Origin: a virus
Taxonomy: Duplodnaviria; Heunggongvirae; Uroviricota; Caudoviricetes
Length of the DNA stretch: 39,189 nucleotides
Virus record (IMG/VR): IMGVR_UViG_2703718862_000013
Reading direction: 5' to 3' (one strand)
Position numbers and translations under genes: made by a program. A model generated the notes under the pieces. That model searched no databases. It was not told the origin of the DNA and saw only the letters and a program-made list of their open reading frames with translations. Position 1 is the first letter of the stretch. Each line of letters starts with the position of its first letter. Below, piece after piece: positions 1 through 29,023 of the stretch.

Positions 1-100
1 CGCGGCGATTTTTTTGATACCGATTTGCATTTCATTTGATACTGCTGAAAAACGCCGATACGCAACTTATTTGATACTAAATCGGCGCTTTTCTTTTGAG
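1..100. repeat. Terminal repeat array, candidate transposase-binding sites at the prophage right end
   Basis: Four copies of (T)TTGATAC / GCCGATAC at 16-20, 38-42, 57-61, 73-77; window starts CGCGGCG, resembling Mu R1 interior (TGAAGCGGCG...). Confidence 0.4.
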
Positions 101-123
101 TTTTAGAATGAGTTTTTAAGCGC

Positions 124-861
124 TCATTCACTCTCTTTCAAACCAGTTTTAACTGTTTGTGGTTTTGGGTAAGGCTGGACTTTGAATAGCTTTGTGTTGA
201 GGCGTTTTCTGGCCCTCTTGTTCAGAAACCGGATGTAACGAAACTGTCGGAACTTATGCACACTGGCTCTGTCGATATTAGCCCTCAGATGTTCACCTCG
301 TTGTCCGCCTCGTTTAATGGCATTCCTGCAAATCTCGTGATACCACTCGCCATCAAGTTCATAGAATATTGTTTCATGGCTGCCTACATAATCAAAATTG
401 CTTGCCTGATACACGACACCAAGACAGCCACAACGCTCATCTGCAAACGACTGAACCCACTGTACCTGCGGATAAAGCTGCCTGATTAGCTTGAGCGCGT
501 AACTGATTGCCCTTGATTCGGAATTTCTCGGCATACAGTCATGCATCCATAGCCGGTTCAGCTCCATATATTCTCGGTTCTGCGTACCCGTTACGACGCG
601 TGCACCACTGTTTGGGTTAAGGGCGTAACCCCATTGCATTACGCCAACAAGTTCCCGTTCTGAAAATATGCCCAGATGAAGGTAGGAGTTATTTACGAAA
701 CGGTGGCTGTAATGTTTATTGACGATAACCAGTCTGGCCAGCCAGCAACTTATTGTCTCAACCCGCAACTCACGGGAACCATAACCAACGATATTGTCGT
801 TATAGCGAATAAGTTCAGGCGTGCTGATGATACGGGATGTGACTTGCTTTCTGTTCCCCAC
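124..861 (-). CDS. mom: Mom DNA-modification protein (adenine modification, anti-restriction)
   Basis: Recalled Mu Mom signature [11 protein letters not shown]...[26 protein letters not shown]...[11 protein letters not shown]...RGGQRG...LRAN; last gene before phage end. Confidence 0.85.
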
Positions 862-1015
862 GACAGGATTTCCTTGTGTATGTGGGGTGCTCTGTGGCGC
901 TCGGAGATGTGATTTGATTGAGGGTTTTACAGCGCGGACATTTTACTTCCAGATAACTGAAACTGGCCCGTGCCAGTAGCTTATTGCAGTGTCGGCACCG
1001 TATGTTTCGATACAT
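815..1015 (-). CDS. com: Com zinc-finger translational activator of mom (ORF open to 1060; start at MYRNIRC likely)
   Basis: [10 protein letters not shown]...VKCPRCK matches Mu Com C4 zinc finger; overlaps mom 5' end as in Mu. Confidence 0.8.
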
Positions 1016-1039
1016 GGCCGCATAACCTCCTGCTTTGTT

Positions 1040-1210
1040 GTTGATGCCTTTCTCATGCAATCGATCGACAAAAACGATCGATTCGATTTGTTTAATTGAT
1101 ACAACAAATAGATTGAAAAGTCATCAACAATGATTCAGGGCGGTGATTATTTACTTAAAGAAAACGAAGAGTTAGGCGGTGAAAACGATCATAAAATGAT
1201 CATTTTATTG
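1040..1210 (-). promoter_or_regulatory. Candidate mom operon regulatory region with two palindromic GATC pairs
   Basis: CGATCG-acaaaaa-CGATCG (1051-1069) and GATCAT-aaa-ATGATC (1187-1201) upstream of com. Confidence 0.35.
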
Positions 1211-1275
1211 ACTTTTTATCCAGTGAAGGTAGGATCGCGCGTATATGTAGTATGTTTCAAATCAACAGGATACTA

Positions 1276-1314
1276 CATAAAAGGGAAACCCAGCATAGCT
1301 GGAACTATGCTGGG
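1276..1314 (-). terminator. Intrinsic terminator, minus strand, insulating the com-mom unit
   Basis: Perfect 10-bp stem CCCAGCATAG/CTATGCTGGG (1289-1314), 6-nt loop, U-rich tract after it on minus strand. Confidence 0.5.
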
Positions 1315-1501
1315 CCGATTTAGACAAGTTTGCATCAATGCTTTACTTCGGGACTACATAAATGGCGACTCAGATAGCGCGAACTATTCTGGGTCAATCT
1401 GTAAAAAACTGCATCAATGCTTCACTCTGAGCTCGTGGTGTATCCTATGATATTCCCCGGCCTCCTGTAAAGCAGAGATGCATCTGTTCAGGCAGGAGAA
1501 A

Positions 1502-1708
1502 ATGGATAAACTGACCACCGACCAAAAGTTACAGGCTGCGCGAATTGCAGCTGATATCACAATTGCAGCAATGACATCCACCAGTTGTGTCTTTACCTCT
1601 TTTCATACAGCTGGTGATTCATCAGCTATGCAATTATGGAACGCGTGCTTTTCTGATGTAATTCGGGCAATCAGCGAGTCAACTGACCCTCACGAACCGC
1701 AAAAATAG
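1502..1708 (+). CDS. Hypothetical small protein (68 aa from MDKLTT)
   Basis: AGGAGA Shine-Dalgarno before ATG at 1502; converges on 1671..1871. Confidence 0.3.
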   Translation: MDKLTTDQKLQAARIAADITIAAMTSTSCVFTSFHTAGDSSAMQLWNACFSDVIRAISESTDPHEPQK

Positions 1709-1871
1709 CGCATCTTGGGGTACACAGGATCTGCATCGCTATCCACATTGCAGTGGTGAAGTTTCGATCCTGTAATGTATTTTCATCAAGTCCTGAACGT
1801 AGCGCATTGATAATTTCTGCGCTTAATATTTCCAGACCTTTGGTATCGGGCTGCTTTTTGTTCTTGTCCAT
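1671..1871 (-). CDS. Hypothetical small protein (66 aa)
   Basis: GAGGAA Shine-Dalgarno 7 nt upstream of ATG; follows terminator/promoter-like element. Confidence 0.4.
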   Translation of the reverse strand: MDKNKKQPDTKGLEILSAEIINALRSGLDENTLQDRNFTTAMWIAMQILCTPRCAIFAVREGQLTR

Positions 1872-1907
1872 GATTATTTCCTCTGACTGGTATATACATC
1901 GCCCATG

Positions 1908-1945
1908 AAAATCAAACCGACAGGAGAAGCTGTCGGTTTGTATTG
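1908..1945. terminator. Bidirectional terminator-like hairpin
   Basis: Stem AACCGACAG/CTGTCGGTT with T-rich flanks on both strands; sits after stop of 1946..2191. Confidence 0.45.
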
Positions 1946-2191
1946 TTACATCATGGCACTGTCAGTTCCGGGCTGAACCGGCTCTGGTTGCTCTACGGGC
2001 TGAGGCTCATTCTCCGTGCTGTTTTCAGCCGGAGAATGGCCAACCATTCGGGCCAGCACTTCATCAACATATGCGTCGATTTGTGCCTCAAAATCCTTGC
2101 GAACCTGCGCCTTCAGCACGCGGTTCACTTCTTCAGAATAAAGTGCCTGTTTGACAAGCTCTTCAGTAACCGTGCCTTTAATCTCTGGCAT
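1946..2191 (-). CDS. Hypothetical protein, acidic with Pro/Glu-rich C-terminus
   Basis: ORF in operon position after esterase gene. Confidence 0.45.
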   Translation of the reverse strand: MPEIKGTVTEELVKQALYSEEVNRVLKAQVRKDFEAQIDAYVDEVLARMVGHSPAENSTENEPQPVEQPEPVQPGTDSAMM

Positions 2192-2226
2192 GAATATTCT
2201 CCTTTCCTTTTCTGGTTCACAAAAAA

Positions 2227-2412
2227 TTAAATCTGACCGGAGTCTTTCGGCTGCGGCATTACAGCACCGCTTTTTATCTTTTCCTCTGCGGCTGCATCAA
2301 TTTTATTTCGAAAATAATTTCGGATAATTTTGTAACCTCCGCTGAGGAGATAAAGTAGACACACACACGTGCAAAAATAAAGCATAAATGTATGTAGTAT
2401 TGGCATAATCAC
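2227..2412 (-). CDS. Hypothetical small membrane protein
   Basis: Single hydrophobic helix ILHTFMLYFCTCVCLLYLLSGGY; likely ATG at 2406 with GGTGA upstream. Confidence 0.4.
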   Translation of the reverse strand: MIMPILHTFMLYFCTCVCLLYLLSGGYKIIRNYFRNKIDAAAEEKIKSGAVMPQPKDSGQI

Positions 2413-2441
2413 TCACCATTTTAAATAAAATGAATTACCCG

Positions 2442-4523
2442 TCATTTATTCACATTAGACGGAGAGACCGCATCGTTAACCTGCACTTTAATTGTGTCAA
2501 ACAACATCGGGTAAGTGGCTGCATTGCCGGTAATATCGGTCAGTGTCAGTTGATCCACCGTGAACCCGGCATTCACCCACTTCACAAGTTCAAATGGTTC
2601 ACCATCTTTCCCGTCCAGAACTGGGGTAACACTCATGCTATTACCACCTGCAAACCGTAACGAGAGCGTATGCCATTCATGATCAAAGACACCATACGAT
2701 CCTATCTGTTGACTTCCGCTCCCTTTGTGATACATCACATTCAGGTTAGCTGAATCCGTTTGCAGGAAACATGATGCGATGAGGTTATTTTTTCCGTCAC
2801 CGTCAGGCCAGTTACTTACAGCCCAGTAAATACCAACACCATACCGGTTTTCCGCAATGCCCGCATCCGATGGAATTTTGAAACGGAGGGAAATATCACC
2901 ACCTCTGGCGAACAAATCCCTGGCATTATCAGCTGTGATCGGATGATACATTTTCCATGAGGCCATGCTGTTAGGCGCTTTATTCACCCTTAACGCTTTG
3001 TTACCACCTGTTGCAGCAGCATCCGTGACAAAGGTTGCTTTTCCGGAAGCCGCATTCCACCCCTGATCTTTCATTGGTTCTGTCGGGGCGTTTGCAGTAT
3101 ACGAAACGATGATCTTCATCTGATCGCTCACGTCCTTCACATCCCCGGTGGGTTCAGGCTCACTCTTACCGGTATCAGAATGTTCTGTTGCCGTTACACC
3201 GCGGAAGAAAGCAGATTTTTGTCCTGACAATGTCAGAATCGCTGTTGCCAGACGGTCTGAAATAATTCCACGGCGCGCCCATGAACTGAAATGGCTTGCC
3301 CTGTCGTTTGATGTCCAGTTAGTCGAATCGCGACTTATGGCACCATAATAGCCAATACCTGGAATATCCGGGTCTTCATCTGGATTATTTGTCGGTACAT
3401 TTTTTCCATTTTCATCCACAACAAATGGAACAAAGTGAATGTTCTTTGCTTCATTAGCATATTTGCCATAAACAGCTTTGTATTGTTCTGGATATGTATT
3501 TTTCCAGTAATACGTCGTATCACCACAGATCCACGGTACAGAAGCCATATCTCCGGCTGGAGATTGCGCAGAAAAAGCCGAAAGTTCACGCCTGAATGTT
3601 TCGACCATCGTCACAAACAGACCGGAATGTTCAGCATGTTTTCCTGTTTTCAGATCATTCTCGCCCTGCATCCAGACAACGGACAGGAGAATATTTCTGG
3701 GGTTACTGCTGAGAGCCGCTTTTGTTCGGTTAACAAGATCGCTGAACAAAGGTTTATTGACTCCCCAGCGCGATGATGCAGATGTTGCTCCGGAAGCTTC
3801 AGTAAATTCACCATCAGCACCATCGGTAAATGCAGAGCCTCCTCTGGCACAGGGAACCAGAAGGATACCAGCCTCTTCCGGGATAAAGGGCAGGAGTTTT
3901 TTTGCAATATGCAAACCCTGGCCGACACAACCATACTGACCTTTTGAAAGATCTGCTTTTGGATGATTATGGTTACTCATATCCAGCACATCATGAAGAC
4001 AGTGATCTGCCGGAATTATATCGTTGTAGGCGCATTCAACCCCGCCAGGTGTAACCGTGTTACGGCGAGCCAGCTGTTTAATACGTGGATCAGGTCGATC
4101 ATAGGTATCAGGCAAAGGAAGACCTTCACCAAATGACGATGCATTCGACTGACCAGCAATAACAACCACGTAATACCAGGACGGAGTTTGACCTGCAACT
4201 TTATCTCCTGCTGAGGAAGTGTATGTTTCCGCATTGTTCCAGTCTGACGGTTCAGTAGTACCGGCAACATCAGCACTTAACGGAATGACAGCACCAATAC
4301 CCGCTCCGGTAATTTCCACGTTCGGATCACCGGATACTGGCCTTACCCACAGGCAATCCCGTGTATTAAAACTGATGAGACAGTCAGCAAATGTCATACC
4401 TCCTTTCGTTTCAGCCGGAGGAAAGGGAGCCTCAAGAAATGCCGCTGTACCACCGGAAACTTTAACGGTAAAGTTTCCGGGCATTGATGATAGTTGAACC
4501 CATTTGGACGTCATAATATTCAT
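2442..4523 (-). CDS. nanS-p: NanS-p-like sialate 9-O-acetylesterase (SGNH/SASA domain) with N- and C-terminal extra domains
   Basis: VVVIAGQSNA...GEGLPLP, PRIKQLAR, LHIAKKLLPFIP, VPCARGGSAFT, WMQGENDL, CGDTTYYWK, EDPD..GYYG, ARRGIISDR match recalled NanS (YjhS) family; AGGA RBS. Confidence 0.75.
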   Translation of the reverse strand: MNIMTSKWVQLSSMPGNFTVKVSGGTAAFLEAPFPPAETKGGMTFADCLISFNTRDCLWVRPVSGDPNVEITGAGIGAVIPLSADVAGTTEPSDWNNAETYTSSAGDKVAGQTPSWYYVVVIAGQSNASSFGEGLPLPDTYDRPDPRIKQLARRNTVTPGGVECAYNDIIPADHCLHDVLDMSNHNHPKADLSKGQYGCVGQGLHIAKKLLPFIPEEAGILLVPCARGGSAFTDGADGEFTEASGATSASSRWGVNKPLFSDLVNRTKAALSSNPRNILLSVVWMQGENDLKTGKHAEHSGLFVTMVETFRRELSAFSAQSPAGDMASVPWICGDTTYYWKNTYPEQYKAVYGKYANEAKNIHFVPFVVDENGKNVPTNNPDEDPDIPGIGYYGAISRDSTNWTSNDRASHFSSWARRGIISDRLATAILTLSGQKSAFFRGVTATEHSDTGKSEPEPTGDVKDVSDQMKIIVSYTANAPTEPMKDQGWNAASGKATFVTDAAATGGNKALRVNKAPNSMASWKMYHPITADNARDLFARGGDISLRFKIPSDAGIAENRYGVGIYWAVSNWPDGDGKNNLIASCFLQTDSANLNVMYHKGSGSQQIGSYGVFDHEWHTLSLRFAGGNSMSVTPVLDGKDGEPFELVKWVNAGFTVDQLTLTDITGNAATYPMLFDTIKVQVNDAVSPSNVNK

Positions 4524-4613
4524 CCTGTTCCTGAATAAACAGAATTATCATATCCACAGACCGATAAACGCCATTTTGCGTTAATTCAGTAAAGGCCCAA
4601 CAAAGGGAGCGTC

Positions 4614-5174
4614 TTATTTTTCCAAAACGCTCGCAGGATAATAACGATAAAGGGTTGAAAGGCCGATATCAAAAATAAGTGCCACCTGTCTTCGGCTGAC
4701 CCCCCCGGCCAGTAAACGCCCGACCTGCTCGTATTGTTCCTGCGTGAGACGACGGGGTCTGCCGCCGGTTCGTCCCCTTTCACGGGCAGCTGTAAGACCA
4801 GCCCGTGTCCGTTCGACAATCAATTCACGCTCCATTTCTGCCAGCGCACCCATTATGTGAAAAAAGAAGCGCCCCATGGGGGTTGACGTATCAATGCTGT
4901 CAGTAAGACTACGAAAATTTATCCCCTGTTGCTGTAATTCATCTGTCAGCGCAACAAGGTGGCGCATACTGCGCCCCAGCCTGTCCAGTTTCCAGACCAT
5001 CAGCGTGTCACCGGGTTTTAGTTTCTTCAGTGCCCGCTTCAGTCCCGGCCGCTGCGTTGTTTTTCCGCTCATTTTATCTTCAAAAATCTGCTCACATCCT
5101 GCACATTCCAGCGCATTTCTTTGTAAACCTGTGTTCTGGTCATTTGTTGATACGCGTATATAGCCAATCAGCAT
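4614..5174 (-). CDS. gin: Site-specific DNA invertase, serine recombinase of Gin/Hin/Pin/Cin family
   Basis: MLIGYIRVSTNDQNT...GDTLMVWKLDRLGRSM...GRPRRLT is near-identical in pattern to recalled Mu Gin; adjacent to invertible segment. Confidence 0.95.
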   Translation of the reverse strand: MLIGYIRVSTNDQNTGLQRNALECAGCEQIFEDKMSGKTTQRPGLKRALKKLKPGDTLMVWKLDRLGRSMRHLVALTDELQQQGINFRSLTDSIDTSTPMGRFFFHIMGALAEMERELIVERTRAGLTAARERGRTGGRPRRLTQEQYEQVGRLLAGGVSRRQVALIFDIGLSTLYRYYPASVLEK

Positions 5175-5236
5175 GTATTTACCTTCCTTAAAAAGAGGTG
5201 GAAAGGCCTTTTAAAGCAGATATACGGCATCCCTGA

Positions 5237-5386
5237 AACCTCGGTTTACGGGAAACGGTAAATAAGGCGGCGAATGCCCTGCCATCGGACGGCACCGCTG
5301 CGGCAGCAAACAGACTCGCCACCCCAGTAAATATTAATGGTGTTCCTTTCGACGGGACGCGGGATATAAACATTACGTCAGGAATG
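5237..5386. repeat. Inverted repeat, left arm (duplicate of tail-fibre constant region)
   Basis: About 150 bp, ~92% identical to reverse complement of 6521-6671; same reading frame NLGLRETVNKAA..NRLATPVNINGVPFDGT.DINITSGM. Confidence 0.85.
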
Positions 5387-5608
5387 CCGGAATCAACGGC
5401 CAATCAGCGTTATGTTACAGGGGTAAGACTGGGAGCGCAGGCATTAAGCAGCGGACTGGAATATAATTACTCCCTGTCATCAGGAAATGTGATTACCGGT
5501 TTTAAGACTGACGGAGACTGGGAAATGCGTGGTGGTGATGACCGTGTTTATTACAGACAGATACAATATTGTATTAATGGGAATTGGGTATCCGCTGCAA
5601 GTATTTAA
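5237..5608 (+). CDS. Silent alternative tail-fibre C-terminal cassette (Sv'-like), no start or promoter in this orientation
   Basis: Frame continues from IR-encoded constant residues into a 73-aa alternative C-terminus related to, but diverged from, the current S C-terminus. Confidence 0.7.
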   Translation, partial: NLGLRETVNKAANALPSDGTAAAANRLATPVNINGVPFDGTRDINITSGMPESTANQRYVTGVRLGAQALSSGLEYNYSLSSGNVITGFKTDGDWEMRGGDDRVYYRQIQYCINGNWVSAASI

Positions 5609-5725
5609 TTAACGGCTCATGGCGTACGGCAGGCAGCGCCTGATATATGCGTTATCTCAGACAACCCCTGTCCGTATATAGCGATAGTATTATTCCTGTT
5701 TTTATCATTGATTCACATGGTGATG

Positions 5726-6250
5726 TTTATGCAACTGATTAATGTTAAACGATATTACCCGGAAAACACCCTCTATGGTAATGATGTACAGTATTTTCAG
5801 AGTGAAGATGGTAAGGATTTCTACGAGTCCCTGCCATTATTCACCAAAAAATATAAACTTTGTATAACACCTGACAGCGGCATTATCTGCTCAATATCAC
5901 AGGACGCTTCGGCGCTGTATCCTGCGGGGTTCTCTGTGGTTGAAGTCGACGAACTCCCTGAAGGTGCTGATATTTCGGGTAACTGGAAGTTTGATAATGG
6001 CGTGATCTCCCGTATTCCGGTTAACTACGCAAGAAAACTGGAAGCAATGCGCCAGTTATATCTTAATCAGGCATATGAAAAAATTAATGACTGGAGAACA
6101 GAATTACAGCTGGGCACCATCAGTGATGAAGACAGAGCCGCACTTACCCGATGGATGGCATACATCAGTCAGGTGAAAAAAATGGAACCATCCGCCATTA
6201 AAACTGAAGCTGAATTTGATGCCATTAAATGGCCCGAACAGCCTGAATAA
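5726..6250 (+). CDS. Tail-fibre assembly chaperone (Tfa, U'-like), silent in this orientation
   Basis: Typical Tfa C-terminus ...RAALTRWMAYISQVKKM...EFDAIKWPEQPE; GGTGA RBS before ATG 5726 (ORF open from 5708). Confidence 0.8.
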   Translation, partial: FMQLINVKRYYPENTLYGNDVQYFQSEDGKDFYESLPLFTKKYKLCITPDSGIICSISQDASALYPAGFSVVEVDELPEGADISGNWKFDNGVISRIPVNYARKLEAMRQLYLNQAYEKINDWRTELQLGTISDEDRAALTRWMAYISQVKKMEPSAIKTEAEFDAIKWPEQPE

Positions 6251-6251
6251 C

Positions 6252-6280
6252 TTAAAGGGTGCTTATCGCACCCTTTTTCT
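6252..6280. terminator. Terminator hairpin between convergent U' and S
   Basis: GGGTGC-ttat-GCACCC followed by TTTTTC on plus strand. Confidence 0.55.
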
Positions 6281-6284
6281 TTCA

Positions 6285-7196
6285 TCAGACAGATGAAACT
6301 GTACGCCATGCATTACTGATATATATCTGCACAGGACGGAAATAAACCCCGCCAATGTTATCGGCAGAGTTTTTTCCTGTTTCCTGCACGTTAATACCGG
6401 AAAGCATACAACCGGAAGGCGCACTGTAATTCCATGACATTTCATTGCCTCCGGGTGAATGATAGCTCTGTGCTCCAAGCTGAACGTTCTGTACATACCG
6501 GCCATCTGCGGTTGACTGCGTCATTCCTGACGTGATGTTGATATCCTGCGTCCCGTCGAAAGGAACACCATTAATATTTACTGGGGTGGCGAGTCTGTTT
6601 GCTGCCACGGCGGTTCCACCCGATGGCAGGGCATCAGCAGCCTTATTTACCGTTTCCCGTAAACCGAGGTTATTGATAAAGGTTCCTTTGTCCGGGATAT
6701 CCGCGCCATTCTGGTCCCTGCGCAGATAACGCGCATCGCCTTCTCCCTTACTGTAAACATCAAGATTCAGACGAGCCGTCGGTTTATCCAGTACATCGTC
6801 AAAATTCCGGGATTTCTCCAGTGCTCCCACATCAGCAGCAGCCAGACTGTCTTTTCCTGATAATCCTCCCAGCCCCAGATGACGGCGGGCAGCAGCCTGT
6901 GCTTCTGCACCTGCATCCGCAATCTCCTTAAGGTTGTTTTTCCGGCTGTATGCGTTTGCTGCAATGATTGCCTTAATGGCTGTCACCAGCTGGTTCAGTT
7001 TTGCCTTATCCGGCTGAACCTTTCCTTCTGTCAGAATGGCAAGCAGCTCTGCCTGCACGATGTTCAGCCAGTCCTGACCGATATGGCTGATCCCTTTGCG
7101 TCCGTCACCTTCAGTAAACCATTTAACCTGCGTGCCCTGAGAGGGGGCCAGTGGTGGCATATCGGTCACACCTGAATTGTTGTCGACAAAATACAT
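6285..7196 (-). CDS. S: Tail fibre protein (S-like), constant N-terminus plus currently joined variable C-terminus
   Basis: Position after baseplate genes; C-terminal third lies inside invertible segment. Confidence 0.85.
   Translation of the reverse strand: MYFVDNNSGVTDMPPLAPSQGTQVKWFTEGDGRKGISHIGQDWLNIVQAELLAILTEGKVQPDKAKLNQLVTAIKAIIAANAYSRKNNLKEIADAGAEAQAAARRHLGLGGLSGKDSLAAADVGALEKSRNFDDVLDKPTARLNLDVYSKGEGDARYLRRDQNGADIPDKGTFINNLGLRETVNKAADALPSGGTAVAANRLATPVNINGVPFDGTQDINITSGMTQSTADGRYVQNVQLGAQSYHSPGGNEMSWNYSAPSGCMLSGINVQETGKNSADNIGGVYFRPVQIYISNAWRTVSSV
6521..6671. repeat. Inverted repeat, right arm (inside S coding sequence)
   Basis: Reverse complement matches 5237-5386. Confidence 0.85.
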
Positions 7197-7753
7197 TACT
7201 CCGTCTCCTCATGACTGTTTTCGTACAGATATAAAAACGTCTGCCAGGCTGGCTTATAACGGTTTAAAATGCACTCCAGCGCACTTGCATCATAAATTCG
7301 CAGTGGCGTAAGAATATCGTCCAGTACATTCATGTGACGGTATCCCACCGCCGTCTTCACTGTCACAATACTAATCCATTGTGATTCCGGTGATGGCTGG
7401 ATATCTATTTCATAACCAAACTCTGTTGCAAACCGGATATAAAATTCACGGTTAAGAGAGGGTTTCATCCGGTATTTATTCCCGGCATAACGCTGACGCT
7501 CCTGAATGGTTGCGCCGGTCATATCACATTCCGGTAACCCCAGATAACGCTCCCAGTCTTCCAGCAGCAGACGGGATGAATCAGGAAAACGTTCTGCCAG
7601 CATCTGGTTACCGATCCAGGAAACACGCTCCGTGGAATGACTGAGACCCAGGCACAAAGCCGCAAGAACGGATGACGGCCGCTTGTCCCATGCCAGACCG
7701 TCAGGCAGCAACTGCAGCAGGGCGCGCTGATGCGGGGTCAGGGTTACAGCCAT
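7196..7753 (-). CDS. Tail/baseplate protein, Mu gp48-like
   Basis: Synteny between baseplate J-like gene and fibre. Confidence 0.65.
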   Translation of the reverse strand: MAVTLTPHQRALLQLLPDGLAWDKRPSSVLAALCLGLSHSTERVSWIGNQMLAERFPDSSRLLLEDWERYLGLPECDMTGATIQERQRYAGNKYRMKPSLNREFYIRFATEFGYEIDIQPSPESQWISIVTVKTAVGYRHMNVLDDILTPLRIYDASALECILNRYKPAWQTFLYLYENSHEETE

Positions 7754-8829
7754 GTGATTTCCCCCACGGTCAGCAACTCTGTATCTCCGGCCATCACGGA
7801 TTTCAGCGGACTTCGAACGTCAAAATCTTCCAGTCCTTTCACCCCTGCAACAGCCCGCCAGAATGATGAAGGCAGCACCAGTCCACCCGGCCGCGATTCG
7901 TTATAAAGCAGGTCCGTTAATGCCTGTTTTACGGCAGCCTGATTTTCCGGCGTTTTGGGTACAATCCTGATCTCAAACGCCACCGGCTTATTGGTCAGCT
8001 TAAACACGCTGATTGTCGGCCCAAGTGGCTGACCAACGGGCTGGCCCGTCGCCGGATCATCATGACTGCGGATATAATCCGCCACCCGCTTCACATCACC
8101 TTCACCGGGGAAAATGTCAGGGTTGTTGTCCTGAACGAACGTTACACCCACGCTGCCCGCCTGCGGCCATTCCGGGCGGCACCATGCCCGCGTCACGCCC
8201 GGCACCTCACGCGCCCAGCGTTCAAAATCGTACTGCGTGCCACCGGACGGCGGATTCTGTACCCGGAAAACCAGGCGGGAAAGCAGCTCCGGCACGGTTT
8301 CCACATCCGCACCACCGGTGAGTCCCGTGCCGGTCACCGTGGTCGTCTGGTTGATCCCCGCCTGCGGTGTGATAAATGTCAGTTTTGTCCCTGGCGGGGC
8401 ATTTCCGGCGCGCCCCGCACTTTCCGCCTCCACATTAACATTCAGTGTTCCGGCTTTTCCGGTCGCAGAGCCGGTGATGCGGTACACAACACCATCGCTT
8501 CGCTGAAGGAGTACACCTTCTGTGATCCCTGCATCCGTGGTCAGCATCAGTTGTACCGGTCCGTCTGCTCGGGAAGCCGGTTTACGGATGACACCCCAGA
8601 ATGCGCAGTGTTTCAGGAGTTCGGCTTCATCAGCTTCTGTCGGAATTATCTGCCGGGAGATCCAGGCCAGATGTTCATGCTCCTGTGCTGACAGACCCGC
8701 CAGTGCATACGCAATGGCATTCAGGGTGGTTTCATTCACTCCCGGCTGCGAACCGGGCAGGCGCTGGCTGATATCCTGTTGTGTCTGTGTGATCAGTTGC
8801 GCCAGTGGTAAGGGCTGATAAGGCATCAT
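7744..8829 (-). CDS. Baseplate J-like protein (Mu gp47-like)
   Basis: Size and synteny. Confidence 0.75.
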   Translation of the reverse strand: MMPYQPLPLAQLITQTQQDISQRLPGSQPGVNETTLNAIAYALAGLSAQEHEHLAWISRQIIPTEADEAELLKHCAFWGVIRKPASRADGPVQLMLTTDAGITEGVLLQRSDGVVYRITGSATGKAGTLNVNVEAESAGRAGNAPPGTKLTFITPQAGINQTTTVTGTGLTGGADVETVPELLSRLVFRVQNPPSGGTQYDFERWAREVPGVTRAWCRPEWPQAGSVGVTFVQDNNPDIFPGEGDVKRVADYIRSHDDPATGQPVGQPLGPTISVFKLTNKPVAFEIRIVPKTPENQAAVKQALTDLLYNESRPGGLVLPSSFWRAVAGVKGLEDFDVRSPLKSVMAGDTELLTVGEITWL

Positions 8830-9263
8830 TCCCCCTTCATATCAGCATAAAAAATCATCGGATGTCTGCTTCCGTCCGGCAGGGTGATTTTCACGGAAAG
8901 CGAAAGGCGATCATGCCCCACACGCATGGCATGACATACCACGGATGTGGCAGCACCGCTTTTATGCAGCCACGCCAGCGCTTCATCAGCATAGGCCTGT
9001 GCACGGCTGACCACGGAGGACAGCGTCTTTTCACGGCTTAACAGCCAGAGACGGGAGCCAATGGGGCGCTCCCGGAAACTGTCTCCCCACCATCCCCGAC
9101 GGTCACGGGTGCCGTCAGGGATTTCATCGGAATCCAGCGCCCGCCTGTCCGTAAACAGTGAAATAATGACCGCAGTCAGCAGGCTGTTATCCGTCAGAAG
9201 ATCTGCGCCGTTCAGTTGCAGGGAACCACAACCCTGATCCCAGACGACAGCAATATCAGCCAT
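8826..9263 (-). CDS. Baseplate protein, gpW/gp25-like (Mu gp46-like); start at MADIAVV
   Basis: ORF open to 9407 but ATG at 9263 abuts upstream stop; synteny. Confidence 0.6.
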   Translation of the reverse strand: MADIAVVWDQGCGSLQLNGADLLTDNSLLTAVIISLFTDRRALDSDEIPDGTRDRRGWWGDSFRERPIGSRLWLLSREKTLSSVVSRAQAYADEALAWLHKSGAATSVVCHAMRVGHDRLSLSVKITLPDGSRHPMIFYADMKGE

Positions 9264-9870
9264 TCTCTGGTCCTCCCGTTTTGCTGCCTTCACCGTTATC
9301 GTGATGCACATGACCTGAATAGGTGATCCCGGCAATAACCGCTTCGGACATCGTGAACGTCCCCTGTGATCTTCCGGTGCCGTCAATGGACACATTGCCT
9401 TTGACATGCAGGTTTTTATCCACCGTCACATTGCCCGTAAAGGTGGCTTCCGGCGTATCCACCCGCATCCCCTCGTCGGCGTAAATCTCCAGCATTTTGC
9501 ATGTCACAATAATGCGACCATCCTTTGTTAACCGTATCCGGTGCCCCTCATGGTGATACACCCCCGTATCTCCGGCTTTGAGTCCGGTCGGACGGCTGCG
9601 CCGGTCTTCCACCACAAGCACCACAGTCTGATCCCGCTGTCCGCCCAGACAGGCAAAAAAGGTTTCTGCACCCGGCAGGGGAACGCTGATCTGCCCGTAC
9701 TGCTGGGGGCGCTCCACATCATCAAAGGTTTCGCCGTCCATGCCGGTGAGCTGCACATTCTGCATTTTCAGTTCGTCATGTGTGCCGGTCAGAACGCCCC
9801 GGCCAAACAGCAGGCGAATACCGCGCGTTACCGGGGCAATCAGGCGGCTGAACACTTCATCATTCATCAA
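9256..9870 (-). CDS. Baseplate spike/assembly protein V-like (Mu gp45-like)
   Basis: Size and synteny. Confidence 0.7.
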   Translation of the reverse strand: MMNDEVFSRLIAPVTRGIRLLFGRGVLTGTHDELKMQNVQLTGMDGETFDDVERPQQYGQISVPLPGAETFFACLGGQRDQTVVLVVEDRRSRPTGLKAGDTGVYHHEGHRIRLTKDGRIIVTCKMLEIYADEGMRVDTPEATFTGNVTVDKNLHVKGNVSIDGTGRSQGTFTMSEAVIAGITYSGHVHHDNGEGSKTGGPENG

Positions 9871-10984
9871 AGCTGATCCCCTGTTTTTTCATCTGCTGGC
9901 GAATAAAGGCATCAACATCGTCACCGGAACCACCCCGGCCCTTACTGTCCGGCTCTGCCGGAACGATAAAGCCGTCACGCGGTGCCAGTACCAGCCGGGT
10001 GACTTCCCCGTTCTGTTCATCCAGTAAAAACTCCACCTGACAGACCAGCAGTTCAGTCTGTTCTATACCGAAACGCTGGGCCGAAACACCGGTCAGCAGA
10101 TTGACATCCCATAACCGGCCATCATCCCGGAACCAGCCACGCACGGTGGCAGAAAACCGTTCTGAACGGGCAATCGCACGGCGCATTTCACGCAGGGCAC
10201 GCTGCCGTGCACCGGTGGTGTCTGTCTGTTGATCGGCGAGGATGATTTTCGGCCGGTAGCGGCCGATCTGCTCATCACTGATGACGCCCACAGGTGCTGC
10301 CAGCCGGGCGGCGGACTCGCTGTCTCCCCGTTTGCCACCACCGCGCCCGTGTCCCCGGACACGGTATTCACTGTATCGTCCTCGCCAGTCCGTGTTGTAA
10401 TCGGCATCAAGCAGGTTATCTCCCAGCACCAGTCTGTCCGTCTGCTGGCTTCCTGCCTGGGTGAACACCAGATCGCCGTCAGCATTACTGGTCACCAGCA
10501 CCCCGCGATGCCGGGCAGAACGGGTCAGCGCATCCGCCACGGTTTCTGAGTTTTCCAGCGTAAAAGAGCTGAAAGGGCGTGCAGCCGTGTCGTCGTTAAC
10601 CTGCCAGCGCACAGCTATCCCGAAGGGCGCACATAAATCTGCGGCAATCTGTGCCAGCGTCCGGTTGCGCCACTGACTGCCGGGGTGGATGGCGGCACAG
10701 TCCACCAGATCGCCGGTTTTATCCCGGCCGCTGATGCTGATCTGATGACGGGTTGCACTGATCCGCTGACTGACCTGATCCAGCCAGCCACTGATGACCG
10801 TCTGCCCGTTAATTCTGAGCGTCAGGGACTGACCGGTCCGCAGGGCTGAGGGGATGCGCTCACCGGGCAGCATCAGCCCCAGTTCAAACGACCCGGCCAG
10901 ATGCTCCAGCGAGCGACGGACGCTGACCGTCAGCCAGCCGGAAAAAATACTGCCGCCGATATACAGTTCAATCCTGCTGCTCAC
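9860..10984 (-). CDS. Baseplate hub, P2 gpD-like (Mu gp44-like)
   Basis: Size and synteny downstream of tape measure and gp43. Confidence 0.7.
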   Translation of the reverse strand: MSSRIELYIGGSIFSGWLTVSVRRSLEHLAGSFELGLMLPGERIPSALRTGQSLTLRINGQTVISGWLDQVSQRISATRHQISISGRDKTGDLVDCAAIHPGSQWRNRTLAQIAADLCAPFGIAVRWQVNDDTAARPFSSFTLENSETVADALTRSARHRGVLVTSNADGDLVFTQAGSQQTDRLVLGDNLLDADYNTDWRGRYSEYRVRGHGRGGGKRGDSESAARLAAPVGVISDEQIGRYRPKIILADQQTDTTGARQRALREMRRAIARSERFSATVRGWFRDDGRLWDVNLLTGVSAQRFGIEQTELLVCQVEFLLDEQNGEVTRLVLAPRDGFIVPAEPDSKGRGGSGDDVDAFIRQQMKKQGISFDE

Positions 10985-12326
10985 TGATCACCTCCACGCT
11001 GCGGCCACCCGGAACAAAAACCGGATCGGGGATGTTGTTTCTGCGGACAAAATACTGCCAGCGGCGGCTGTTGCCGGTGGCACGGTACAGCGTGACCAGT
11101 GCCGGTTCGGTGGTTCGCACCATGACCTGAAAAGCGCCGGGAAGATGAACACTCCGCGTGGTTAAATCTTCTGTCAGCGCAAGCCCTGCATCACGTAATG
11201 CAAGGGCGGTGCCGGTATGGCCCTGTGCGGACAGATCCAGTACCTGTTGTTCCATGGCATCACTCAAATCCCGGTTGATACGCTGCACATCGGCAGAACT
11301 TTCCAGCCAGGCCAGTCCACCCGCACGGTCAGTATCCTGAACGTGCGTTGTATTCTGCCGGATGACCTGATCCAGCAGTTTCCCGACCGTCTGCGCCTGC
11401 GACACCAGGGTTGCACTCTGCATGACGCTCCGCAGCAGACGGATATTTTTCTGTGCCGCAGGCGTCAGACCAATCAGGCGCTGCGGATCATCCTGTTCGC
11501 TGAGGGTGTAACGCAGGGAAGAAAGTGTGCGGTACAGCTGCGGCATTGCCTGCTCTGTCATGCTGTCACGGTTTGTGGTCAGGCTGCCGGACGGCCTTCC
11601 TGCCTTCCCGGTCAGTGACAGGGAAGGATTGCCGGGCAGCCCGGTCAGCACGGCAAATATTCCGGCCAGCGATTCAGCCATGCGACGGGGCGCATTAATC
11701 AGGGCGGCGGCATTGCCTTTAATGGCGGTAAAACTGGCCGTAAAGGCACTGACATCCTGCACAATCCCCATCCCTGAAACGGCATTCTCCAGCGCATCAA
11801 TCTTATCGCTGATGGTGTCGGTCATGGCCTGAACATCATGCAGACCGTCTGAAATCACCGTCCAGCCGTCTGAAAGCGTGTTAAACAGCTGATTCATTGC
11901 TGAACCGCTTTTCTGCTCCAGCGCAGCTGCCGTATCTTCTACCACCGAAGGGGCGGTATCGTCACTGGCGGGTATCACGTTGATCGTGAACTCAACCGTT
12001 CCCTGCTCGCTGGCGTTATAACGGCTTTCAAAGCTGTTTATCAGCACGTTTAACGTGCCGTAATCCGGGTGCATCAGTTCACCGGCACCGGGTGCACGCA
12101 GCGCATCACGCAGGCGGCTTCGCTGTGTCTGAAGATCGTCTCCGGTCACCAGAACCGTGAATGTGAACTCCGGGAGTTTTGGCCCCAGATCATCCGCACC
12201 GCCGCTTTCACGCAGTGGGTATTCACGGCGCACAATGTTACGTCCGCCCCGTTCCCGCTGCTCCTGATAAACCAGGAACGGTACGCCACGAAAGGAGCCA
12301 CGCCCCGGCGTGTCAGTAGAGGCCAT
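10968..12326 (-). CDS. Tail protein, Mu gp43 (P)-like
   Basis: Size and position immediately after tape measure. Confidence 0.65.
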   Translation of the reverse strand: MASTDTPGRGSFRGVPFLVYQEQRERGGRNIVRREYPLRESGGADDLGPKLPEFTFTVLVTGDDLQTQRSRLRDALRAPGAGELMHPDYGTLNVLINSFESRYNASEQGTVEFTINVIPASDDTAPSVVEDTAAALEQKSGSAMNQLFNTLSDGWTVISDGLHDVQAMTDTISDKIDALENAVSGMGIVQDVSAFTASFTAIKGNAAALINAPRRMAESLAGIFAVLTGLPGNPSLSLTGKAGRPSGSLTTNRDSMTEQAMPQLYRTLSSLRYTLSEQDDPQRLIGLTPAAQKNIRLLRSVMQSATLVSQAQTVGKLLDQVIRQNTTHVQDTDRAGGLAWLESSADVQRINRDLSDAMEQQVLDLSAQGHTGTALALRDAGLALTEDLTTRSVHLPGAFQVMVRTTEPALVTLYRATGNSRRWQYFVRRNNIPDPVFVPGGRSVEVISEQQD

Positions 12327-14370
12327 AGTTCCCTCCGTTCCAGACGTTCACATCCAGGCCATGCTGTGCGGTATCATCCACATCAATACTGCGCGCCCGC
12401 CAGCCTTCAGGGGCCACAAGCTCTACCCGTGCGGCGGTTTTCGCGGTGGCCTGTCCGCCGTTTTCGTCACTGCTGCCACGCAGTTTCTGCCAGGCCTGCG
12501 TCAGCCAGCCCCCCAGATAATCACCGAGATAGCTGCCCACTGTGGAACCAATGGCAACCCCGACCGGACCGGCAGCCGCCCCCAGCGCGCCACCGGCGAT
12601 ACTTCCGGCAAGGGAACCCACGGCACCGGCTTTATCGGCTGCACTGGCGCTGCTGTCCAGCAGTACAGGAGCCGCCATGGCACCGGCCCACAGGGCACCC
12701 CCACCCAGCCGACCGGCACCACGGAACAGCCCGGCAAAACGCCCCAGCCCCATGCGGTTTCCGGCCGCCGAAAGCAGACCACCGGCACGGCTCATCATAC
12801 GACCGAAGAAGCCCTGTTTACCGGCGCTCTCCGCCAGCTGCTCACCGGCGGTCACGACAGTCGTGACACCCCGCCCGCGTCCGGGGCCGCGTTTTTTACG
12901 GTCGCGCACGGTTTTGCCGTCACCGCTGACCACCACATCCCCGCCGCCTGAGGCCAGGCCACCCGCAGGCCAGTTGGTGACCAGCACGGGCTGAACGGCA
13001 GCAGGATTTACCCCGGTAAGGAAATTCAGGAAGCGGCCAGCGCGTCCGGGCTGCGTTCCCGGCACAGTGGTCTGCGGTTTGCGGAAGGGCGACGTCAGCA
13101 CGGAGGTCATCGCCATACCATAGCGTAAGGGGGTTGCGCCGAGACGTAATGCTCCCGCCCCCGCAAACCTGAGCACCTTCAGCGCGCGGGAGGCGAGATA
13201 CATATACATCAGGTATTTTGCGGCGGTCTGCGCCCCCTGACCAATACGATCCAGTGCATCGCCATAACCGGCGTCGCGCAGTGCCTGAAGCGTTTCCCTG
13301 ACTTTCTGAATGGCACGGTAAAAGCCGGTTGCAGCGTCTCTGGCATACTCGAATCCCTGATTCAGGGCCGAGGCCGTCTGTGTGGCCAGCTTATCCTGTA
13401 AGCCGCTTTTCTGTGCCGCATCAGCATAATCCAGGAAGCCTTTCAGGCTCTTTTTCAGACTGTCAAACGGTCCCTTTGCCATCACTTCACGGGCAAACTG
13501 ATCCCAGACGTCGCCCATCATGGACGTCATTCCCGTCCAGGAATTCATGGCGTTTTTCTGGGCACCTTTTGCCTGTTCGGCCATCACCTGAAATAACAGG
13601 CGAATGCTGTCCGGCCCCAGTTTTCCTTTTTCGCCTTTCTCACGGATGAGCTTCTGGTTTACGCCCAGCTTATCGGCCAGTAACTGGTAAACGTTAATCC
13701 CGTATCCGGTCAGAATATTGGCGTCCGCTGCCTGGATACTCTGGCGGGCAAACATCTGTTTGAGTTGCAGGGACGCACCCTGTGCATCTGACAGTGACCA
13801 GCCGTGATAGCCGCCCTGATCCTGAAGCATGGTAATAAAGCGACGGGCTTCCCTGTCACTCATGCCAAACCCGCGACTGGAGGCGTATTCCTGCATAACC
13901 CCCGCCAGCCCCCAGGTGGTGTCTTTGGCGTTCTGTACTGCCCAGGCTTTCACTGCTTCCGTTTTTGCCTTATCGCCATGATTAATGGCGTTGAGACGCA
14001 GAATATAGTTCTCCATCTCTGCGGCCGGGCGGATAAAGGCTTTATTAAAACCGTAGACCGCAGCCCCTCCCGCCAGCATCCCGTAAAGGTTGCTTATCCG
14101 CCCGATGGTGCCGGTAATGCTGCCCTGCAGGCGGTCAAAATCTGACGTTACCGTGCGGATGCTGCCACGAACACCGGCAAGCGTTCGCTGCATACGGGAG
14201 CCGACAAGTTCTGTTTCCTGACCGGCCCGGCGGGCTGCATTTCCAAGACCACCCAGGCCTGTCCTGCCGGAACGGGAGAACGCCCCCAGCTCCTGTGACC
14301 ACTGGCGGGATTTGGCGGAAATATTGCCGAGTAAATCGACAATCAGGGAGGCTTTCAGGTTTTTTGCCAT
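12313..14370 (-). CDS. N: Tail tape measure protein
   Basis: 685 aa, Ala/Gly-rich with predicted long helices; between chaperone and baseplate genes. Confidence 0.85.
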   Translation of the reverse strand: MAKNLKASLIVDLLGNISAKSRQWSQELGAFSRSGRTGLGGLGNAARRAGQETELVGSRMQRTLAGVRGSIRTVTSDFDRLQGSITGTIGRISNLYGMLAGGAAVYGFNKAFIRPAAEMENYILRLNAINHGDKAKTEAVKAWAVQNAKDTTWGLAGVMQEYASSRGFGMSDREARRFITMLQDQGGYHGWSLSDAQGASLQLKQMFARQSIQAADANILTGYGINVYQLLADKLGVNQKLIREKGEKGKLGPDSIRLLFQVMAEQAKGAQKNAMNSWTGMTSMMGDVWDQFAREVMAKGPFDSLKKSLKGFLDYADAAQKSGLQDKLATQTASALNQGFEYARDAATGFYRAIQKVRETLQALRDAGYGDALDRIGQGAQTAAKYLMYMYLASRALKVLRFAGAGALRLGATPLRYGMAMTSVLTSPFRKPQTTVPGTQPGRAGRFLNFLTGVNPAAVQPVLVTNWPAGGLASGGGDVVVSGDGKTVRDRKKRGPGRGRGVTTVVTAGEQLAESAGKQGFFGRMMSRAGGLLSAAGNRMGLGRFAGLFRGAGRLGGGALWAGAMAAPVLLDSSASAADKAGAVGSLAGSIAGGALGAAAGPVGVAIGSTVGSYLGDYLGGWLTQAWQKLRGSSDENGGQATAKTAARVELVAPEGWRARSIDVDDTAQHGLDVNVWNGGNYGLY

Positions 14371-28529: not shown

Positions 28530-28600
28530 TGTTACGCTGTCTCATGATGTTCTCTGAGTCAGCGTAACGGTGAAGGAAAGGCGGCAGGCTTTGCGGAATA

Positions 28601-29023
28601 TCAGAAAAGTGGCGGTTGCGTTCTTGCCAGATGCAGACGGCGCTGTTCGCGTATGACGGTATAAATCTGGGTTTCTGACATCCTGTAATGGCGGCGCAGG
28701 GTTTCAATTTTTTCGCCCTGGCTCCAGCGGGAAAAAATCTCATTATTGCGCAGTTCGGTGAAAAGGGATTCACCGACCGGGAGATAATAACCACGCCCGC
28801 CCATGTACCCGGCCTGTGCGGCCGCAACTTTACGGGCAAGCATTCCTGCCTGAGCAGGTTCAATCCCCTGACGGTGCAGTTCAGCACTGATCACATCAAC
28901 CAGGTCCCGCAGCGTGCCGGGCCAGTTCTTTTTCAGCTCATCATCAGGAATGTCATCCAGACGGTCAATCAGCGCGTGCAGCTGTTCGCTGTCACCAAAC
29001 ATGCTCATCTGTGTTTCAGCCAT
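28601..29023 (-). CDS. Mor/C-family transcriptional activator
   Basis: C-terminal HTH region ...YYLP.G.SL...LRN.EIF..W.....I..L...Y..S...IY.VIR..RR...QPPLF resembles recalled Mu Mor; Mor versus C not distinguishable here. Confidence 0.75.
   Translation of the reverse strand: MAETQMSMFGDSEQLHALIDRLDDIPDDELKKNWPGTLRDLVDVISAELHRQGIEPAQAGMLARKVAAAQAGYMGGRGYYLPVGESLFTELRNNEIFSRWSQGEKIETLRRHYRMSETQIYTVIREQRRLHLARTQPPLF

Follow-up and report, generated by a model that had tools for sequence, protein, structure and literature searches.

The stretch of DNA analysed here, a virus record of 39,189 nucleotides (IMGVR_UViG_2703718862_000013; hereafter the window), is in its entirety a complete Mu-like prophage of Escherichia coli, and between the tail-fibre gene S and the invertase gene gin it contains a working Gin/gix host-range switch, a miniature G segment. 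The textbook example of a programmed change of host range is provided by invertible fibre segments. The tail-fibre assembly chaperones (Tfa), a family whose members bind the tip of their own fibre and are required for it to trimerise, are thought to be tip-specific partners, which stay on the fibre in Mu and P2-type phages. What we describe is a natural, widespread, and still-flipping segment that encodes two alternative fibre tips, Sv and S'v, and a single chaperone, whose gene is located behind the tip to which it does not appear to be ancestrally matched. This one-tfa layout is kept in more than 200 E. coli genomes.

The initial annotation, made by reading the sequence, had placed two gix-like sites in inverted orientation at positions 5229-5254 and 6654-6679, and both are recovered: the 18-nt inner half of the site, TTCCCGTAAACCGAGGTT, has exactly two matches in the window, at 5237-5254 on the minus strand and at 6654-6671 on the plus strand, where none would be expected by chance (100 shuffles). 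The gin-proximal site (ATCCCTGAAACC TC GGTTTACGGGAA, 5229-5254) agrees with the gix of Mu at 20 of its 26 positions, and the S-proximal one (TTCCCGTAAACC GA GGTTATTGATAA, 6654-6679) at 23, the reference sites having been read from NC_000929; both 26-bp sites share with Mu the core AACC-TC-GGTT. Together with a pair of inverted repeats, these sites enclose a segment of 1,435 bp adjoining gin (4614-5174, minus strand). The repeats had also been noted, even though their length had been put at 150 bp and is 179 nt: the left arm (5237-5415), which codes for the fibre residues common to both variants, and the right arm (6493-6671) are 88% complementary to each other. The 186-aa product of gin is a serine DNA invertase (Pfam Resolvase, 7.4e-51; HTH_7, 1.6e-14) with 76% identity to Mu Gin across 181 aa and with the catalytic serine motif RVSTNDQ retained, and the gix-gin 5' region, where segments of this type have a Fis-dependent recombinational enhancer (in the 5' part of the invertase gene), is 81% identical to that of Mu overall at the nucleotide level.

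In the present orientation, S (6285-7196, minus strand, 303 aa) consists of a constant N-terminal part, Sc (6680-7196, recognized by its match to PDB 5yvq_A), and of the currently expressed variable tip Sv (6285-6518, 77 aa plus stop). The silent alternative C-terminus, S'v, is located on the plus strand at 5243-5608, with its stop at 5606-5608. Upon inversion, either in silico or in a natural flipped copy, an intact S' of 298 aa is formed, which diverges from S after the residues ...INITSGM, leaving 77 variable amino acids in one protein and 73 in the other. The in-frame exchange of a 77-aa for a 73-aa C-terminus, as originally proposed, is therefore correct, with both fibre proteins intact.

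That the segment does invert is evident from E. coli STEC2018-607, where a synthetic flipped version of the region finds a 100.0% match in one piece. Window positions 1-12843 are present in this genome base for base, save for 5237-6671, which appear as the exact reverse complement, and over the remaining 26 kb all that separates the two is a pair of substitutions and a difference of six units in a hexamer repeat; the concern that the segment might never invert is thereby settled. This pair of genomes also allows the crossover to be mapped. Of the 21 mismatches between the repeat arms, the first is at 5269, and hence the exchange took place within 5237-5268, an interval of 32 nt that holds the gix core, with its central TC at 5241-5242. 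The exchange is thus located at the gix core and not elsewhere in the long repeat, as general recombination would permit. Among 5,426 complete E. coli genomes, the orientation of gin relative to tfa is that of the window in 204 and flipped in 33, and a 2.8-kb query returned 184 window-like and 17 flipped genomes, all these counts being inflated by the clonal sampling of O157 and other Shiga toxin-producing E. coli (STEC). Both orientations clearly occur, and the commoner one is that in which tfa lies antisense to the late operon.

The gix sites of some relatives deserve a separate mention. The core of the S-proximal site is substituted beside the central dinucleotide in two related prophages, L003 (at about 5169-5178) and L005 (at about 5485-5494), which have AACCGACGTT or AACCGATGTT in place of AACCGAGGTT. 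These substitutions might reduce the rate of inversion and add to the orientation bias. The peptide encoded across gix, ..DQNGADIP.K..F..NLGL.ET.., is a conserved element of the fibre genes in dozens of genomes from Photorhabdus, Xenorhabdus, Morganella, and Pantoea, and a Gin-like tblastn match accompanies it at 10 of 80 such loci (L018-L097, for which flanks of 5 kb were retrieved).

The chaperone gene, tfa (5729-6250, plus strand, 173 aa), had been correctly identified in the initial annotation, which placed it at 5726-6250; its start is probably the ATG at 5729, as in the RefSeq annotation of an identical protein. The product matches Pfam Caudo_TAP (PF02413) at 3.6e-19, with 69.6 bits against a cutoff of 22.1, and Mu U (PDB 5yvq_B) at 6e-17. 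A tblastn search of the whole window with 16 diverse Tfa proteins yielded matches only at 5729-6247, all others having E>0.05, and so found neither a second Tfa nor a tfa remnant. The absence of a tfa gene behind S in the present orientation thus stands, also when open reading frames (ORFs) below the 60-aa threshold of the first reading are considered: as candidates for a hidden chaperone, the minus-strand ORFs of at least 30 aa within 5609-6309 were rejected, being antisense fragments of tfa of 30-46 aa, in line with the claim that the antisense of this gene (there called U') lies below the S stop. The stop codons of S and tfa are only 34 bp apart, and between these convergent genes there is a G+C-rich hairpin (6254-6276, plus strand). 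The first reading had described it as a terminator hairpin behind the S stop; since its T-run is on the plus strand, it is primarily the terminator of tfa.

A single tfa is unusual for a segment of this type, given that all the Gin-type segments compared with it carry two. In Mu, SfMu, and Yersinia vB_YpM_41 there are two tfa genes, each starting 2-3 nt past the stop of its fibre gene, and two are also present in each of eight Gin-type segments from Morganella, Pantoea, and Limnobaculum. The latter served as a control set, obtained by scanning species-representative genomes with the N-terminus of S, a scan that returned no close relatives, but only the widely conserved gix-encoded peptide region. 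The contrast with Mu, for which the initial annotation gave a chaperone for each orientation, therefore extends to SfMu, vB_YpM_41, and the other Gin segments, and the canonical content of the Mu and P1 segments, where each tip is followed by its own tfa, is not that of the window.

In other respects, the segment resembles the G segment of Mu. The late region has the same order (gp44-48, S, invertible segment, gin, com, mom), Gin is 76% identical, the gix sites agree at 20-23 of 26 positions, the N-terminus and the tip of S are homologous to those of Mu (PDB 5yvq), and the C-terminus is swapped in frame. However, the segment measures 1.43 kb, compared with 3.07 kb in Mu, and encodes a fibre of 303 aa instead of 504 aa, the middle shaft being absent; its inverted repeats of 179 nt are far longer than those of Mu (34 bp); it has one tfa rather than two, preceded by a gap of 120 nt and not of 2 nt; and an esterase cassette stands between gin and com. 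SfMu, the P1 C segment, vB_YpM_41, Morganella, and Pantoea likewise have serine-invertase segments with gix-type sites inside a fibre gene, and in SfMu (SfMu_52) and vB_YpM_41 (YpM41_27) there are tips homologous to Sv, but these systems carry one tfa per tip, directly downstream. A third arrangement is found in a Mu-like prophage of E. coli (L101/L102) and in Rac-SA53, which have a non-invertible short fibre plus a Tfa. L101 resembles the window in its short fibre of 331 aa after gp48, with a tip 63% identical to Sv, and in its Tfa, which is 57% identical to that of the window (64% in the N-domain). It differs, as Rac-SA53 does, in having neither an invertase nor an alternative tip, and its tfa follows the Sv-like tip after 14 nt.

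The window prophage belongs to the Sp18 family of E. coli O157:H7 Sakai. The invertible host-specificity region of Sp18, whose genes differ from those of Mu, was scored as "atypical" by Asadulghani et al. in 2009, and packaged DNA and a Mu-like virion morphology were shown for this prophage (PMC2669165). In the searched text of PMC2669165 we found no statement on a single chaperone or on any test of the two orientations. Thus, whereas the invertible segment had already been noted in outline in 2009, we found no description of its one-chaperone wiring or of the apparent mismatch between the ancestry of the chaperone and its position. The inversion of a Mu-like segment described by Milman et al. 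in 2023 and confirmed with long reads (CP066032) was considered as a further case, but it concerns a canonical two-tfa segment of the SfMu type and not a member of the Sp18 family.

Related prophages of O157 and other STEC are 81-84% identical over the region and have the same one-tfa layout. The window carries a different Tfa allele (63% identical overall), and its S'v tip differs from that of the Sakai-like type (L008). Six relatives were compared, and in all of them the modules have been shuffled: Tfa comes in two alleles, which share 76% of their residues in the N half but 49% in the C half, the S'v position is occupied by either of two tips (43% identical), and the Sv position by one of three (42-94% identical), including a delta-type tip recruited to the chaperone-less position in L002. 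Each nevertheless has exactly one tfa, always behind the tip in the S'v position. The family is present in diverse backgrounds, including O157, O91, O111, and pig and deer isolates. Sv itself is under strong purifying selection: its dN/dS against relatives is 0.09-0.2 (0.095 at a dS of 0.6, and 0.086 at a dS of about 1), and it has no stops or frameshifts in the relatives compared. This argues against a dead tip, because a tip that is never assembled should drift. As judged from these comparisons, the one-chaperone asymmetry is not the product of recent decay. A degenerate member of the family does exist in E. coli TOE17 (L016, 3100-4120), where only 104 aa of the truncated tfa remain and its 3' end recurs, inverted, as an additional copy (46 aa) beside the fibre stop, pointing to a secondary rearrangement inside the segment.

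The ancestry of the tips and of the chaperone does not seem to follow their position. Sv is 55-64% identical to the tips of SfMu_52, the P2-like P24E6b, Rac-SA53, vB_YpM_41, and E. coli L101, each of which is followed by a tfa within 2-14 nt, and S'v has its counterparts in the tips of Mu S (G+) and PSP3, at 56-58% identity. Outside the family, the nearest relatives of the window Tfa are Rac-SA53 tail2, L101 P0045, and the Salmonella proteins P0036 and P0103, all of whose partner tips resemble Sv more than S'v. The N-domains of these four proteins are 57-69% identical to that of the window (scores 283-360), with 53 of 93 residues matched in Rac-SA53 tail2 (score 300) and 58 of 91 in L101 P0045 (score 327), and the partner tips of the latter two share 63-64% of their residues with Sv while resembling S'v only weakly. 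Mu U and the PSP3 chaperone, whose partners are S'v-like tips, are distant from the window Tfa and reach N-domain scores of 143-148. The N-domain is the part with which the Tfa of Mu binds the fibre tip, and this protein is retained in the virion (North et al. 2019, as summarised in PMC9608196), where it contributes to receptor recognition (PMC9608196). Since its nearest relatives partner Sv-like tips and those of Mu and PSP3 are distant, the lone Tfa is an Sv-type chaperone by descent that has been placed for co-transcription with S'v. The pairing between Tfa and tip allows some latitude in nature: Mu U and SfMu_51 share 87% of their residues in one half and 96% in the other, and yet the tips that they partner, one of them S'v-like and one Sv-like, are only 50% identical.

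The initial annotation had offered two ways out of this asymmetry, namely that Sv needs no chaperone or that a U gene was lost and one host-range state is defective, and left out a third one, which we tentatively favour and to which we would give not quite an even chance: that one Tfa serves both tips. Gin recombines the two gix sites and flips 5237-6671, joining Sc in frame either to Sv, as at present, or to S'v. According to this explanation, both tips would be functional, and the single tfa in the middle of the segment would supply the chaperone to both. When S'v is ON, transcription of the late operon would continue into tfa. In the Sv-ON state, tfa lies antisense to that operon and would need its own transcription, most plausibly from the non-coding spacer that separates the stop of S'v from tfa (5609-5728, 120 nt, plus strand), and its transcript would end at the hairpin shared with S. 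A shared Tfa would require that tfa be expressed independently of orientation. The action of Tfa on both tips is what the relationships of the proteins suggest, and a shared Tfa is the best fit because the closest relatives of this Tfa partner Sv-like tips.

The spacer is the only candidate for the site of a tfa promoter. Its 120 nt are unlike the gaps of 2-14 nt in canonical fibre-tfa pairs and are unique to the Sp18 family, and over its proximal part, about 55 nt, it hardly varies among relatives in which tfa is saturated at synonymous sites. In the Sakai-like L008, which has a different S'v tip, the spacer is unrelated in sequence and about 80 nt long by reading of the alignment, and the same alignment shows in it a TATGAT hexamer, which is about as far from the ATG of tfa as TATTAT is in the window. 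No homologue of the spacer was found in the phage collection, and it gave no Rfam match above noise and no stable fold (z-score +0.77). As for the late promoters with which it was compared, the four annotated C-dependent ones of Mu share ATAACCCC-N20-TAnnnT. In the window, CCGCAAA[AG]CC-N19-TA[CT]GCT is found upstream of the lysozyme and protease genes (28560-28596 and 20636-20672; minus strand) and is probably the motif of this phage for promoters that depend on its late activator, differing from the ATAACCCC motif of Mu. An activator of the C/Mor family is encoded at 28601-29023.

Several points weigh against a shared chaperone, and most of them concern this spacer, in which no promoter could be demonstrated either by a sigma-70 scan or by comparison with the late motifs. 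The sigma-70 scan found none, the number of matches in the region being that expected from shuffled sequence. A candidate for a Mu-type C-dependent late promoter, ACAACCCC-N19-TATTAT, is present, but it is not conserved in L002 and L003, and we keep it as a weak lead only and not as evidence; by hand comparison, the spacer agrees with the candidate late motif of the phage at only about 10 of 21 conserved positions. That the proximal spacer is conserved could be due simply to the recent exchange of a block by recombination. Moreover, the phage would have to tolerate that transcription of tfa runs head-on into the strong late transcription of S, the case for Tfa binding to either tip is indirect, and the counts of the two orientations are swollen by the clonal sampling of O157 and other STEC.

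The first branch of the original alternative, that Sv folds without Tfa, so that the switch alternates between a fibre made without any chaperone (Sv) and one that depends on it (S'v plus Tfa), is possible but doubtful in our judgement. It would account simply for there being no tfa in cis when Sv is ON and no tfa promoter in the sigma-70 scan of the spacer, and it agrees with the dominance of the Sv-ON orientation in lysogens and with the purifying selection on Sv, which means that this tip works somehow. The S'v fibre may in addition be capped by its chaperone, as the Mu-type Tfa stays on the fibre, and since in Mu it remains in the virion and aids receptor recognition (PMC9608196), its very presence or absence could be what is switched. 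The chaperone itself would then be the switched element, the S'v fibre being made with and probably capped by Tfa and the commoner Sv fibre being made without it, a reading to which we would likewise give rather little credence. If true, a single inversion would toggle between a chaperone-capped and a naked receptor-binding tip, and Sv would be a natural Tfa-independent member of a Tfa-dependent tip family. However, every Sv-like tip examined outside the family, in six other elements, is tightly coupled to a tfa, within 2-14 nt; Sv ends like the Mu S tip, with no extra C-terminal domain for intramolecular chaperoning; and the resident Tfa comes from the lineage that partners Sv-like tips.

The second branch fares worse and is unlikely. 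Were the U gene behind Sv lost, Sv-ON virions would be fibre-less or poorly infective and the switch would effectively be an ON/OFF one, as the two tfa genes of canonical segments, the distance of only 34 bp from one stop to the other, such as a clean deletion might leave, and the existence of rearranged, degenerate versions such as TOE17 might suggest. Nonetheless, the layout is common to diverged mosaic lineages and to more than 230 genomes, Sv has a dN/dS of about 0.09 with neither stops nor frameshifts, new tips (the delta type of L002) have been recruited to the chaperone-less position, and the window contains no tfa remnant. A defective state thus conflicts with the conserved layout, with the dN/dS of 0.09-0.2, and with a count of 204 against 33 genomes, clonally inflated as it is, in favour of the supposedly defective orientation. 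Less probable still is that other prophages of a polylysogenic STEC host provide, in trans, the Tfa that the Sv fibre uses. STEC genomes are rich in prophages with tfa, homologues of the window Tfa are widespread in E. coli and Salmonella, and complementation between prophages is documented in O157 Sakai (PMC2669165), but reliance on a helper would be precarious for a phage that transposes and passes from strain to strain, the family is found in backgrounds as diverse as O157, O91, O111, and pig and deer isolates, and no specific helper tfa was identified.

The segment offers a simple genetic system for asking how specific Tfa is and whether a Mu-type tip can assemble without it, and the answer bears on fibre-swap engineering in phages and tailocins. 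The family also sits in many STEC genomes, including O157:H7, where automated annotation of the flipped form can err. Two flipped RefSeq assemblies illustrate this: the intact 298-aa S' is left unannotated in NZ_CP075697.1 (L004, 7118-8014) and NZ_CP066759.1 (L017, 4260-5147), short spurious ORFs being called in its place, and the silent tip is labelled as an incomplete pseudogene.

Regarding the surroundings of the switch, the genes on the minus strand run from the homologues of the Mu baseplate genes gp44-gp48 through S, the invertible segment, gin, an esterase gene, and two small DUF genes to com and mom. The gp48 homologue directly precedes S (7196-7753, minus strand). S is a true but shortened Mu S: its N-terminal part, which in this type of fibre attaches to the baseplate, matches over residues 1-198 residues 1-191 of Mu S (PDB 5yvq_A, 4.6e-47) and its last 75 residues (228-302) match the Mu S tip at 2e-9, whereas the middle shaft of about 240 aa is absent. 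The cassette between gin and com/mom (1946-4523, minus strand), where Mu has nothing, encodes a 693-aa protein with a SASA sialate-O-acetylesterase domain and DUF6645 (2442-4523), a DUF1378 protein (about 2227-2406), and a DUF826 protein (1946-2191), all on the minus strand, which we take to be the set that accompanies the NanS-p esterases of Shiga toxin (Stx) phages. Upstream of this cassette, from 4579 on the minus strand, there is a late-promoter-like ACGCAAAAT...TATGAT.

The STEC2018-607 prophage is inserted in bcsA, a gene for cellulose synthase (L004 1-812; L098 27001-28104), truncated fragments of which are found at both prophage ends, followed by bcsB. A "tRNA-OTHER" called by PGAP in this copy was not reproduced, as ARAGORN finds no tRNA in the window. 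Finally, a perfect tandem repeat of the hexamer CGGCTT (13.8 copies, 18146-18228) lies inside the minus-strand ORF 18081-18506, a gene of the head-tail region, where on the minus strand it reads as an Ala-Glu run; its length is variable, the prophage of STEC2018-607 being six units shorter.

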